A stretch of 64,000 nucleotides of DNA from Escherichia coli (GTDB lineage: Bacteria > Pseudomonadota > Gammaproteobacteria > Enterobacterales > Enterobacteriaceae). Each line of letters opens with the position of its first letter. Position 1 is the first letter of the stretch. This document shows positions 39,307-43,078 of the stretch, one piece after another. The notes beneath the pieces are model-generated. The model was not told the DNA's origin. It saw nothing but the letters and a program-made list of their open reading frames with translations, and made no database searches. Position numbers and translations under genes: made by a program. The stretch lies in the NCBI RefSeq assembly GCF_041886205.1, contig NZ_CP169029.1; one strand, given 5' to 3'.

Positions 39307-40686
39307 CTATCCTTTTTTATATTCATTTATAATCTGATAGCGATTAATCAACTGATTCAGCACCATTTCTGTCTGTTTCTGCTGCTGTTCTCTGTCATTT
39401 TGCTGCAGGGCTTCACCATAACGACGTAACTGCTCTTCTGCCGGTATGTGCCGGTTAAAAGCCTGCATGATGCCAAACACCTCCGTTTTCAGTTCACTGA
39501 CCGTCATGTATTTTCCCCGCTGTTCATCCAGCCGGTTCAGGCGCTCAGCCAGTTGCTGTAAACGAGCCATGCCTTCACTCCAGCCCGTCATCGCCTCTTC
39601 CGGGAGCGCACGCCCCCTTACGCTCTTCTGCCAGTTATCCTCCATTTCCTGAACACGGGGGTTATCGGGGAAAAACCCCCTCACCTGCTGCAGCAGTTGT
39701 GCACTGCGTTGCAGGTTGTATGCCGGCGGTAATTCTGTCAGTCGCGTTATCTGCTGACCGGAAAGTGTTATCCACTCCGGTGCATGATTTAACAATAAGG
39801 GTGTTCTGCTGAGCTGTGCCAGATGGTCTGCTGAAAGCACATCCGGTGGCGGTGTCAGCAGCCCCCTGAGTTGCTGCTCTGCCGGTGATGGCTGTGTCAG
39901 AGACTGCCAGCCCATGACTACACTGACAACCAGCAGGGCAGCGCAGGCACCAGCCACAAACGGTTTCAGAAACGCGGGCGAAGATTTTTGAAAGGAGGGG
40001 GTGGTCTCTGCTTTTGTTTCAGAAACAACATGCACCAGACGGGAGTGCGGCAGGGTCTGATATTCCTGTACGTGCGGAGCATCAGAGCAGAGAGCCTGAG
40101 CCGGAAGCGTTACCGGGGATACCTCTTCACCCTGTAACGGCTGGTTCTCCAGACGGGTGATATATCCCTTCACCATGGCTTCCGGCAAAGTCACCTGGCT
40201 GCTCTGTTTAAGTCCGTGCCGCGCCAGCGTGTCACCCAGCATCTTCAGGTATGTCTCTGTCTGATACAGTAACGGCAGACTGTCACGACTGTCCGGCGGC
40301 ATTGTCCGGAGCGTTTTCTGCAGGCGACTGACCAGACCGGTGATGATTTCCAGTCTGGCATGGGGATTCAGGGGCCACATCACTGACCAGTGATGCCGGG
40401 TCAGCGCCACAATCAGGGCCAGCCCCTCATTCAGGCCACTTAACCCTGTTGTATGCATCCGGGCAACGGTGTACCAGGATGCCGTCTGTAATTCCACACC
40501 GTTATGCTCATACAGCCGCAGGCAGAGCCTCTCCACATAACACCAGTCCACATCCGGGCGTGCCGGGTGGGTCAGTTTGCTGATTTCATCGCGCAGGGCG
40601 GCATAATCAGGCACTGACCGGGGGTCACCACCTGTTTTCAGTTTCACGTCAGAAGTCATCGGCAGTTTCTGTGCTCCCGTATTCAC
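39307..40686 (-). CDS. ImpA_N-domain protein, type VI secretion associated (VasL/TssA-like)
   Basis: N-terminal region ...DPRSVPDYAALRDEISKLTHPARPDVDWCYVERLCLRLYEHNGVELQTASWY... typical of ImpA_N; central TM segment FLKPFVAGACAALLVVSVVMGW. Confidence 0.6.
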   Translation of the reverse strand: MNTGAQKLPMTSDVKLKTGGDPRSVPDYAALRDEISKLTHPARPDVDWCYVERLCLRLYEHNGVELQTASWYTVARMHTTGLSGLNEGLALIVALTRHHWSVMWPLNPHARLEIITGLVSRLQKTLRTMPPDSRDSLPLLYQTETYLKMLGDTLARHGLKQSSQVTLPEAMVKGYITRLENQPLQGEEVSPVTLPAQALCSDAPHVQEYQTLPHSRLVHVVSETKAETTPSFQKSSPAFLKPFVAGACAALLVVSVVMGWQSLTQPSPAEQQLRGLLTPPPDVLSADHLAQLSRTPLLLNHAPEWITLSGQQITRLTELPPAYNLQRSAQLLQQVRGFFPDNPRVQEMEDNWQKSVRGRALPEEAMTGWSEGMARLQQLAERLNRLDEQRGKYMTVSELKTEVFGIMQAFNRHIPAEEQLRRYGEALQQNDREQQQKQTEMVLNQLINRYQIINEYKKG

Positions 40687-40727
40687 CGTTATTATTCCTG
40701 TGAGAAGCCGGAACAGACCATCCGGTG

Positions 40728-42515
40728 TCAGACAAAATCCTCAAGATGACGACTGATGCTGTTTTCATGGTAACAGGTCACCAGTAATTCACGGGTTGCC
40801 CGGGTGAACGCCACATACAGCACCGGAATCACTTCGGACTCATCCGCAACCCCCGAGTGAACGAAAGAGGCATTGATAACCGCCACATACGGAAACTCCA
40901 GTCCCTTACTGCTCTGGTACGTCAGTAAATGCACCACATCCCTGCGTCGCGAGTATGCCTTCTTGCCTTCCCTGTCAAAGCAGGTGGCAAAAGGTATCCC
41001 GCGCTGTGTCATAACCTCTGTCAGGTGTTTCACTGAAAACTCTGCCGGACACAGCACAGCCATATCACTCCAGTGACCGCACAGGGCATGGCGCTTCTCC
41101 AGCCAGTCTGCAACCTGTCTGGCTTCATCACGTTCAGAAGCACAACGCAGGATTTCCCGCTCTGTGCCCTCTTCACCACCCGCCTGTGGCTGAACGAGCG
41201 GTATTTCACGGTTCTGATGTTTTTCAAAATACTCGCGGGAGAATGCATAAGCAAAGTGCAGAATGCGTTCCGGATTACGATAATTGACCGGCAGGACAGA
41301 AGTGCGTCCCTGCGCCTGAATCCCCACACTGGCCAGAGAAAAGTTCAGAGCCCGCTCCCGCCGGTAAATGGACTGGGCGTCATCGTACATCAGGAGCAAT
41401 GAACGGGATACGTTATCAAACAGACGGGCAATCAGAGCCAGCCAGCGACTGTCAAAATCATGCCCCTCATCCACCAGTACAGCATCATATCCGGTACCGG
41501 TGATTTTCCCGCTGTTCACGGCCTCTTCCAGTGCGCTGAAGCATTTCTCCGGGTAATCCTTTCTGTCAGCCGTCACCTGAATACCGTAACGTTTTATCAT
41601 CGAGGCACACCAGCTGTGAAAATGAGATACCGTAACCCGCGATTTCAGCCCTCTGTCCTCAATGCATTCCCGCAGATAACTGGCCAGCGTAATGTTGTAG
41701 CACAACACCAGTATCTTTCCCGGTGTGGTTTCAGCCAGGTAAAGACAACGGAACAAAAGAATCATGGTTTTTCCGGAACCGGCCACACCATGAATGACTC
41801 GATGCCCGTCACCAATATTTCTGGCCAGAATCTCCTGCTGAATATCCATGATTTTGATTTGTGAGTTCTGTTTCACGGTCACTTCAGGAAACAGATGGGC
41901 GCGCAGAATATCTCTCATCCGGGGTGTCACCCGGGTTCTGAATCCCGTGGTAAACATCCCGGCTATTTTCTGCCGGAATACCTCAGGTAAAACGGACTGC
42001 GTCATTTCATCCTGACAGATTGTCTGTGCTGAAGGAAAAATCTTTTCCACCGCATTCTCATCATTCCCTGCCAGTGCCTTCAGTTGCTGACGGGTAATGC
42101 GGGTAAACACCACACCATACGCCCAGGCCAGGTTCAACCGTCCCTTATACTGACCGTCATTCTGCCGTAAGCACGGGTCTGCAGGTAAGGCATTAACCGT
42201 ATCACAGGCATAACGACGAACCTGCACCAGCGGATTTATTTCTGATTTCAGAATCCCGTCGGTTTCCAGCGTGACCTGCTCCTGGTTCGCCTTACGCAGC
42301 GTGGAAACCGTCCAGTCCTTAACCTCCAGAAATACCAGCCCGTTCTCCGGGTCAATAATGACAAAATCCGGATGCCGGTTTTTTCGTCCCACCGGAATAT
42401 CGTACCAGACAAGGCAGTCATCGTTCAGAAAGCGCTCCAGTCGTAAAGCCACCCTCCTCTCTCCGGGCGTCATTCTCTCCTCAGTGGACGCCGATACATT
42501 TATCAGTTTCGCCAT
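40728..42515 (-). CDS. NERD nuclease-like domain fused to SF1 (UvrD-like) helicase
   Basis: N-terminal NERD-like region (...RHPDFVIIDPENGLVFLEVKDW); Walker A GVAGSGKT; Walker B LVDEGHDF; C-terminal UvrD_C-like YQSSKGLEFPYV...VAFTRA; ATG with SD GGAGAG. Confidence 0.75.
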   Translation of the reverse strand: MAKLINVSASTEERMTPGERRVALRLERFLNDDCLVWYDIPVGRKNRHPDFVIIDPENGLVFLEVKDWTVSTLRKANQEQVTLETDGILKSEINPLVQVRRYACDTVNALPADPCLRQNDGQYKGRLNLAWAYGVVFTRITRQQLKALAGNDENAVEKIFPSAQTICQDEMTQSVLPEVFRQKIAGMFTTGFRTRVTPRMRDILRAHLFPEVTVKQNSQIKIMDIQQEILARNIGDGHRVIHGVAGSGKTMILLFRCLYLAETTPGKILVLCYNITLASYLRECIEDRGLKSRVTVSHFHSWCASMIKRYGIQVTADRKDYPEKCFSALEEAVNSGKITGTGYDAVLVDEGHDFDSRWLALIARLFDNVSRSLLLMYDDAQSIYRRERALNFSLASVGIQAQGRTSVLPVNYRNPERILHFAYAFSREYFEKHQNREIPLVQPQAGGEEGTEREILRCASERDEARQVADWLEKRHALCGHWSDMAVLCPAEFSVKHLTEVMTQRGIPFATCFDREGKKAYSRRRDVVHLLTYQSSKGLEFPYVAVINASFVHSGVADESEVIPVLYVAFTRATRELLVTCYHENSISRHLEDFV

Positions 42516-42802
42516 AACACTCTCCTGCCACCCGATAAAAATATAACTGCCGGTATATTCCGTGCAGACAAAATATGTCGGATACTTTTTTTAAAACAGA
42601 CATAAATCCGGTTTCACAACAGGTGAAATCATCCGGACCAGCCCCCCTGGCCGGAAATTCACTGACTGAACGCGCCATAAATATCCGTGGCTTACACAGT
42701 AAAGCCACACCTGAATATTGTTAAATAACAGGCTCATAATCAAAATCACAAAAATATCTTTTCCATCCTGACTACCCTCACCAGGGCAGCCAGGATAAAA
42801 AA

Positions 42803-43078
42803 TCAGACATGATAATAAGATGAATTGTCCACAAACTGCTGTTGCTTCAGATGGCGCAGCAACACCCTGCCCTCCGGCATAAATGTTGTTCCGTAACGAA
42901 CCAGTCCTGCGTCTTTAAGTTCTGCATCAATGACATAATGCAACTCACCTGGCTGAGTCTGTTCCGGCATCGTCACGTCGACGCGCTTAATACGTGGCTC
43001 ATACTTCAGCAGAACATCTGAAAGCACGCGCATCAGTTGATGCACCGTCCCCGGCATGCCCTGCAAAATGGTTGTCAT
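42803..43078 (-). pseudogene. TssE (gp25-like T6SS baseplate) C-terminal fragment
   Basis: ...LLKYEPRIKRVDVTMPEQTQPGELHYVIDAELKDAGLVRYGTTFMPEGRVL matches the GPW/gp25 C-terminal region; N-terminus absent. Confidence 0.5.

Follow-up and report, generated by a model that had tools for sequence, protein, structure and literature searches.

What is left of a secretion gene cluster when only its last genes can be recognised, and did the unrelated gene lying between them arrive later or was it there from the start? The question is raised by a stretch of 64,000 nt from Escherichia coli (RefSeq assembly GCF_041886205.1, contig NZ_CP169029.1; the window, by which the whole of this stretch is meant), in which three open reading frames (ORFs) on the minus strand occupy positions 39307-43078. 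An earlier note, made from the letters alone, had taken two of them for the remains of a type VI secretion system (T6SS) cluster that was degraded and then reused as an insertion site by the third, a NERD-domain helicase gene, and by insertion sequence (IS) elements. Our analysis indicates that positions 39307-43098 are very probably the distal-end remnant of a secretion island of the Sci-1 type (E. coli T6SS-1), whose core was lost by a deletion in which no IS took part. The remaining genes are unable to build a secretion machine, tssE being a pseudogene and tagA having neither a sheath nor a TssA partner nearby.

The identity of the two T6SS-derived ORFs was examined at domain level. The leftmost, as called mechanically, spans 39307-40686 on the minus strand (459 aa) and reaches a GTG at 40686; the probable start is the ATG at 40659. 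Pfam searches placed an ImpA_N domain at residues 17-119 of its product (PF06812, 63 bits against a cut-off of 26.9; window 40330-40638) and a VasL domain at residues 310-451 (PF12486, 128.9 bits against a cut-off of 27.3; window 39334-39759). Between them, residues 239-257 form a hydrophobic segment (FLKPFVAGACAALLVVSVV..., mean Kyte-Doolittle value 2.16 over 19 aa; window 39916-39972). This is the architecture described for TagA, an accessory T6SS protein of the TssA family (class B of PMC6745524; PMC6730261) that acts with TssA at the distal end of the sheath (PMC6745524; PMC6730261). Relative to the functional and experimentally studied TagA of enteroaggregative E. coli (EAEC) 042 (455 aa), the product was collinear over its full length, with 83% identity across 451 aligned residues, and the indels, of 12 nt and 3 nt, were all in-frame.

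The rightmost ORF (42803-43078, minus strand, 91 aa) matched positions 60-113 of the 133 in TIGR03357 with 30 bits, below the cut-off of 53.2 because the gene is partial, and the C-terminal half of the gp25 domain (GPW_gp25) with 26.8 bits against a cut-off of 27.2. It was 93% identical to residues 60-142 of TssE from EAEC 042, and DNA homology to tssE spanned 42835-43098. The start codon and the first 51 codons are gone, with DNA of a phosphotransferase system (PTS) IIC gene in their place; a complete gp25-like domain with its own start codon, as in a TssE/gp25 baseplate wedge, is not encoded. A terminator-like hairpin directly after the tssE stop probably marks, to judge from its pattern, the native end of the T6SS operon. 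The earlier note had left its assignment of these two ORFs open to challenge by profile searches. When these were run, both ORFs matched T6SS families, and profiles and identity to EAEC 042 together identified them as TagA and as the C-terminal piece of TssE, with matches far above what chance would give.

To look for further machinery, the whole window was searched by tblastn with the translated genes of the intact cluster of E. coli E300010 (tssB, C, K, L, tagL, hcp, tssH, vgrG, PAAR, tssM, A, F, G, J and E). The search recovered only residues 53-141 of TssE, the helicase and the VasL portion of TagA. The best other match, a 54-residue stretch with the tssB query at window 7667-7828 (E = 0.006), was not convincing, and Pfam scans of about 30 further ORFs in the window returned no T6SS family. 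By these two methods, the window contains no sheath (tssB, tssC), tube (hcp) or spike (vgrG, PAAR) gene. It also has none for the membrane complex (tssJ, L, M), none for the baseplate components tssF, G and K, and no tssA or clpV (tssH), while tssE is present as codons 52-143 only. The 13 core genes (tssA-tssM) of a functional T6SS cluster are not assembled here, and the earlier statement that the rest of the machinery is absent from the window was confirmed.

The surviving genes were then compared with intact clusters. Intact islands are laid out as tssB...tssJ-tssE, a variable slot, the NERD/UvrD helicase, a small ORF, tagA and then defence genes, and the tssE-helicase-tagA order was seen in four E. 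coli strains with a complete core (E300010, EAEC 042, SW070919 and VTB97432v). DNA identity between the window and intact clusters was 95% for the helicase, 88% for tagA and 94% for the 3' part of tssE. The Sci-1 cluster of EAEC 042, in the pheU island, reads ...tssF-tssG-tssJ-tssE, a hypothetical gene, a GIY-YIG gene (PD-Lambda-1-like), a '3'-5' exonuclease', a small ORF, TagA, the two genes of Kiwa, and ibrAB. The window has the same genes in the same order and orientation, the helicase being 94% identical at the amino acid level to the 595-aa '3'-5' exonuclease' gene in the same position. It differs from EAEC 042 in lacking tssB through tssE codon 51 and, in the tssE-helicase interval, the hypothetical and GIY-YIG genes. 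The 306-bp ORF that separates helicase and tagA in EAEC 042 is missing too, and the spacer there is 68 nt rather than 424 nt. Downstream of tagA, 0.9 kb of unique DNA and an IS66 element stand in place of the 042 genes. The tssE-helicase spacer, empty in the window, is also empty in SW070919 and holds an Ail/Lom gene in strain M3.

The point at which the cluster is broken could be placed exactly. Homology to tssE ends at 43098 and homology to the PTS ascorbate-type IIC gene begins at 43097, the two sharing CG as a 2-nt microhomology. Codon 52 of the 143 in tssE is thereby fused, head to head, to codon 333 of the 418 in the IIC gene. No IS end lies at the joint, which points to illegitimate recombination. 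At the DNA level the IIC fragment is 88% identical to its intact counterparts in M3 and OkiPb01703, and the IS3-type orfA next to it is the native downstream neighbour of IIC, found in the same order in M3, OkiPb01703, Bongo and RIVM_C029670. Collinearity with the IIC-transposase segment of other strains ends at about 43940. The features of the relic and its flanks are collected in Table 1.

Table 1. Positions of the T6SS relic and its bordering features in the window, from left to right
Feature	Position	Strand	Evidence
IS66-family element (tnpA, tnpB, tnpC) left of the relic; tnpC with internal deletion of aa 233-412	36185..38054	+	tblastn; blastn against the GXU-23-25-310 copy
Low-GC DNA of ~0.9 kb directly downstream of tagA	38403..39306		Comparison with other tagA loci
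tagA, T6SS accessory gene, TssA-family cap protein	39307..40659	-	Intact ORF; Pfam; identity to EAEC 042 TagA
NERD nuclease + UvrD-type superfamily 1 helicase, 595 aa	40728..42515	-	Pfam NERD, UvrD-helicase and UvrD_C; PADLOC
Terminator-like hairpin, 20-pair stem and T-rich tail, directly after the tssE stop	42759..42802	-	Consensus scan; pattern match only
tssE relic, codons 52-143 of 143, pseudogene	42803..43098	-	NCBIfam/Pfam, partial; identity to 042 TssE; tblastn, aa 53-141
Deletion joint	43097..43098		Three-way sequence comparison
PTS ascorbate-type IIC 3' fragment, codons 333-418, native stop	43097..43356	+	Pfam EIIC-GAT; NCBIfam
IS3-family orfA-type transposase (HTH_Tnp_1)	43556..43855	-	Pfam
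IS66-family tnpC fragment, last 106 aa, right bound of the relic region	44185..44502	-	tblastn, 97% to tnpC at 17127-18665; Pfam

A single event would be enough to produce this joint. The starting state would have been an island with an intact core and a PTS operon on the tssB side, laid out like OkiPb01703. In OkiPb01703 and Bongo the core is deleted and the order is tagA and the helicase, both leftward, then DUF4222, a hypothetical gene, ECs1377, a leftward LacI gene, IIA-IIB-IIC rightward and a leftward transposase. The PTS operon lies about 4.8 kb beyond the tssB-side flank in both. From such a state, a single deletion of about 32 kb, made up of some 27.5 kb of core and some 4.8 kb of flank, would yield the exact tssE-IIC joint, removing tssB through tssE codon 51 and leaving the helicase and tagA in place. 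An origin of the joint by tandem duplication or in several steps, prompted by the layout of M3, was also considered. It was dropped as unnecessary, since OkiPb01703 and Bongo carry the PTS operon on the tssB side.

Several observations weigh against the descent of this segment, by one deletion and in place, from a complete island. No genome was found with both an intact core and a PTS neighbour of the OkiPb01703 type; among those inspected, the backbone beyond tssB is of another kind in EAEC 042, E300010 and STEC313. M3 carries its PTS operon on the tagA side, so that the layout varies between strains. The relic, with a 0.84-kb tail of PTS and transposase DNA, sits between IS66 pieces inside a mosaic island resembling the leuX island for contact-dependent inhibition (CDI), and an island of the same type in GXU-23-25-310 has no T6SS; the relic fragment may have reached its present place, by translocation or import, only once truncated. 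The tagA gene of the window gives no signal of relaxed selection, which fits a recent loss of the core and fits continued use as well. The analysis covered the window, and a second T6SS elsewhere in the source genome might use TagA.

The first of the alternatives that follow from these points concerns history only and leaves the gene identities unchanged. It holds that a fragment already truncated to tagA-helicase-tssE'-'IIC-transposase reached its place in a leuX-type CDI island by translocation or import, through rearrangement mediated by IS66 or through recombination between related tRNA islands. IS66-family pieces do lie on both sides of the segment, and at leuX in GXU-23-25-310 the same island, IS66-cdiI-cdiA-cdiB-ECs1377, is present without a T6SS relic. 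In E. coli JML285, which carries the same relic, an IS100 inversion has brought the relic next to the leuX integrase, and rightward of the transposase the sequence is not that of the window. CDI and T6SS genes also occupy equivalent slots beside an ECs1377/LacI/PTS module in related islands, which is probably why relics and CDI loci adjoin in the window and in M3. Synonymous divergence (dS) from other strains is 0.36-0.44 for tagA, about twice the 0.15-0.20 of the adjacent helicase. The difference suggests a mosaic origin and a recombination boundary within the 68-nt spacer, from which the 306-bp ORF is absent. However, no IS end was found at the relic's own boundaries (39307-39373 and 43940), and no donor arrangement was identified. 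Translocation or import of a ready-made fragment is less likely than not, though by no means negligible.

Further comparison of the flanks gave the following picture. Homology to other tagA loci stops at the 3' end of tagA (39325-39373). Of 5,426 complete E. coli genomes, the set on which all genome counts given here are based, JML285 alone shares the low-GC DNA beyond it (38403-39306). Within it, a mini-ORF (38417-38701, minus strand, 94 aa) resembles a LuxR-type helix-turn-helix protein (GerE, 21.5 bits, below the cut-off). No tRNA gene that could anchor the island was detected in the window.

The second alternative starts from the condition of tagA, and holds that the gene was kept because it still has a use, whether in another T6SS of the same genome or in a role apart from the T6SS, so that the segment would be a working accessory module and not debris. 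The ORF is indeed intact with its ImpA_N, hydrophobic and VasL parts, and an intact helicase gene 68 nt upstream makes co-transcription possible. The ratio of non-synonymous to synonymous divergence (dN/dS) of tagA was 0.21-0.22 against intact clusters, compared with 0.22-0.30 among the intact clusters themselves. Relaxed selection on the orphan gene was accordingly rejected, although dN/dS is integrated over a long divergence and would be blind to a recent loss of constraint. In other genomes without a core, tagA is broken, by a 1-nt deletion in M3 (dN/dS 0.17) and a frameshift in 129130 (dN/dS 0.35), which argues that it is dispensable without a cognate system. The published function of TagA is tied to interaction with its cognate TssA and the sheath (PMC6730261), and no cognate tssA, tssB or tssC is present in the window. 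On balance, continued use of tagA is improbable, and the window copy is most likely an orphan that has not yet decayed, at an earlier stage than the copies in M3 and 129130. A T6SS-independent or trans-acting role for intact orphan alleles such as this one is a weaker extension of the defence-gene reading of the helicase given below.

Annotation alone would overstate the decay of tagA. The RefSeq pipeline PGAP cuts TagA into ImpA_N, middle and VasL pieces flagged as partial or pseudogene, even in EAEC 042, where positions 24070-25437 of the examined locus form a continuous 455-aa ORF. The same splitting was seen in three other examined loci and is a systematic annotation artefact for the TagA family. 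These flags were rejected as evidence of decay, since the ORF is continuous in EAEC 042, E300010, SW070919 and the window.

The remaining alternative is that of the earlier note, that the cluster decayed in place and that the NERD helicase and IS elements then landed between two surviving T6SS genes. Although the helicase is not a T6SS component, IS fragments are abundant in the region and the content of the tssE-helicase spacer differs among strains, this is very improbable, because the gene stands in the same place and orientation in the four complete clusters, among them the experimentally active EAEC 042, at 94-96% amino acid identity with 595 aa and no indels, because the interval from tagA to the tssE stump is free of IS, and because tssE is broken without an IS end. 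Neither IS ends nor target duplications bracket the helicase. Since the same site is occupied in intact clusters, the helicase is an original resident of the tssE-tagA interval that survived the deletion. The synteny comparison that the note itself had proposed thus showed collinear order and refuted the insertion of the helicase. Nor did the relic serve as a landing site for IS elements, whose fragments flank it and do not enter it. What stands of the proposed eroded and reused cluster is a genuine T6SS relic, with its own helicase and a clean break at a microhomology. More generally, where a non-T6SS gene lies between two T6SS relics, intact clusters should be checked before it is called a later insertion.

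The helicase itself appears complete. It carries a Walker A motif (GVAGSGKT) and the motif VLVDEGHDF, and residues 1-594 match positions 1-556 of the 559 in the PADLOC model PDLC01087 'NERD+UvrD' with 465.5 bits, that is, over the full length. No indel was found in five genomes compared with EAEC 042, and dN/dS was 0.11-0.17 with or without a core. Its intact state in core-less relics would be explained by a function independent of the T6SS. To judge from its profile match and context, the helicase would be an autonomous gene, probably one of anti-phage defence. A literature search found no experimental report of phage protection by NERD+UvrD (PDLC01087), nor the origin of the PADLOC model name 'C3a187'. 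Other defence systems do occur in the tssE-tagA interval and beyond tagA in other strains. EAEC 042 has, within 19851-27045 of its locus, the PD-Lambda-1-like GIY-YIG gene and Kiwa (KwaA/KwaB), E300010 has Zorya type II near tagA (15557-19024 of its locus), and ibrAB is found in several strains. It is quite possible, though we would not yet favour it, that the helicase is a stand-alone anti-phage gene at home at the distal end of the T6SS-1 island, that the tssE-tagA interval and the region beyond tagA form a defence hotspot, and that selection keeps the helicase when the core is lost. If true, this would explain why some 300 or more complete E. coli genomes keep the helicase, with or without tagA, but not the matching core. 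In genomes without a core the helicase is intact throughout and tagA often broken, and this difference makes the helicase a reasonable candidate for anti-phage testing.

Relics of this kind were found to be common. Some part of the tagA-helicase pair is present in 1,495 genomes, and the pair at a coverage of at least 80% in 462. A core of the EAEC type (tssF-G-J) was found in 66-69 genomes and a second core type (tssJ-G as in SW070919) in 24-83, so that a matching core is kept in only about 70-150 of the genomes searched. At megablast sensitivity, which a further core type of greater divergence would escape, a matching core is lacking in about two thirds or more of the genomes with the pair. 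The core was deleted independently, with the helicase and tagA retained, in 129130, AR_0149, OkiPb01703 and M3. These relics, together with those of Bongo and M1, resemble the window in having an intact helicase next to tagA and no core, but the end points of their deletions are unlike those of the window. In the 129130 type an IS fragment stands in place of the entire tssB-tssE block, whereas M3 keeps a frameshifted, near-full-length tssE beside an Ail/Lom gene and a CDI locus. In both, tagA is frameshifted, unlike the window copy. Decay has gone further elsewhere, leaving only a 791-bp NERD fragment beside IS66 in O157:H7 and other Shiga toxin-producing E. coli, or only a 441-bp VasL fragment in some genomes.

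A near-identical copy of the window segment is in JML285 (NZ_AP024114), whose identity to the window is 99.9-100% along 27072-42120 and across the tssE'/'IIC joint, the joint itself being identical. It differs by an IS100 in the helicase at window position 42120 and by an inversion that has set the two halves about 172 kb apart. The RefSeq record of JML285 already annotates the pieces as a partial TssE, a partial PTS IIC, and ImpA_N and VasL fragments. The phenomenon is known and common, the process being ordinary genome decay, and T6SS clusters of this kind are often lost in E. coli strains. In sequence types ST410 and ST131 of the species, the T6SS has been documented to be lost through deletion or IS insertion (PMC10711316). 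As in the window, large internal deletions there leave remnants of tss genes at the junctions. The locus and the junctions are different ones, rhsG-tssM and tssD-tssA in ST410, and an ISEc12 in tssM in ST131. With the loss of T6SS by deletion so well documented in this species, the relic has little wider biological significance.

To the right of the relic, a complete CDI locus lies within 44590-59919, with cdiB at 58153-59919 and cdiA at 48361-58140 (3259 aa), both on the minus strand, and a probable cdiI at 47879-48364 (minus). Orphan toxin and immunity modules then follow it, such as an ORF with PT-VENN and a weak Ntox28 match (44973-45896, minus) and a CdiI_3 immunity gene (44590-44976, minus). 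We considered whether window 60231-61360, which is 88.8% identical to the DUF4222/hypothetical/ECs1377 module beside tssB in E300010, might be the far flank of the former T6SS, the gap having been filled by insertion of the CDI locus. This was rejected. The module is multi-copy, occurring in 2,100 genomes and at up to five places per genome, and it directly abuts cdiB in 392 of the 5,426 genomes (junction at window 59920-60700), including the leuX CDI island without a T6SS relic. Beside the ECs1377-family gene of the window (60617-61276), a 790-aa ORF (61621-63993, minus) has weak UvrD-type helicase matches and ankyrin repeats; in GXU-23-25-310 the homologue carries the annotation of a DEAD/DEAH helicase pseudogene of 2.85 kb.

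Other observations were made to the left of the relic. An orphan CdiI gene (PF07262) is split into two minus-strand ORFs, 33881-34210 and 34143-34445, and adjoins a frameshifted ISL3 transposase at 34509-36005. Between IS66 copies, the island carries katG (31082-33313), cytochrome b562 (30654-31043) and an OmpC-like porin (27515-28696), all on the minus strand and spanning 27515-33313; the three are also annotated in JML285. The leftmost part of the window (1-14754) holds phosphoethanolamine-transferase (sulfatase) fragments at 2-556 and 14110-14754, an Ail/Lom-type outer-membrane protein gene, a P4-type integrase at 4513-5715, a UhpA/UhpB-like two-component pair with a transporter of the major facilitator superfamily, and an iron-type ATP-binding cassette transporter.

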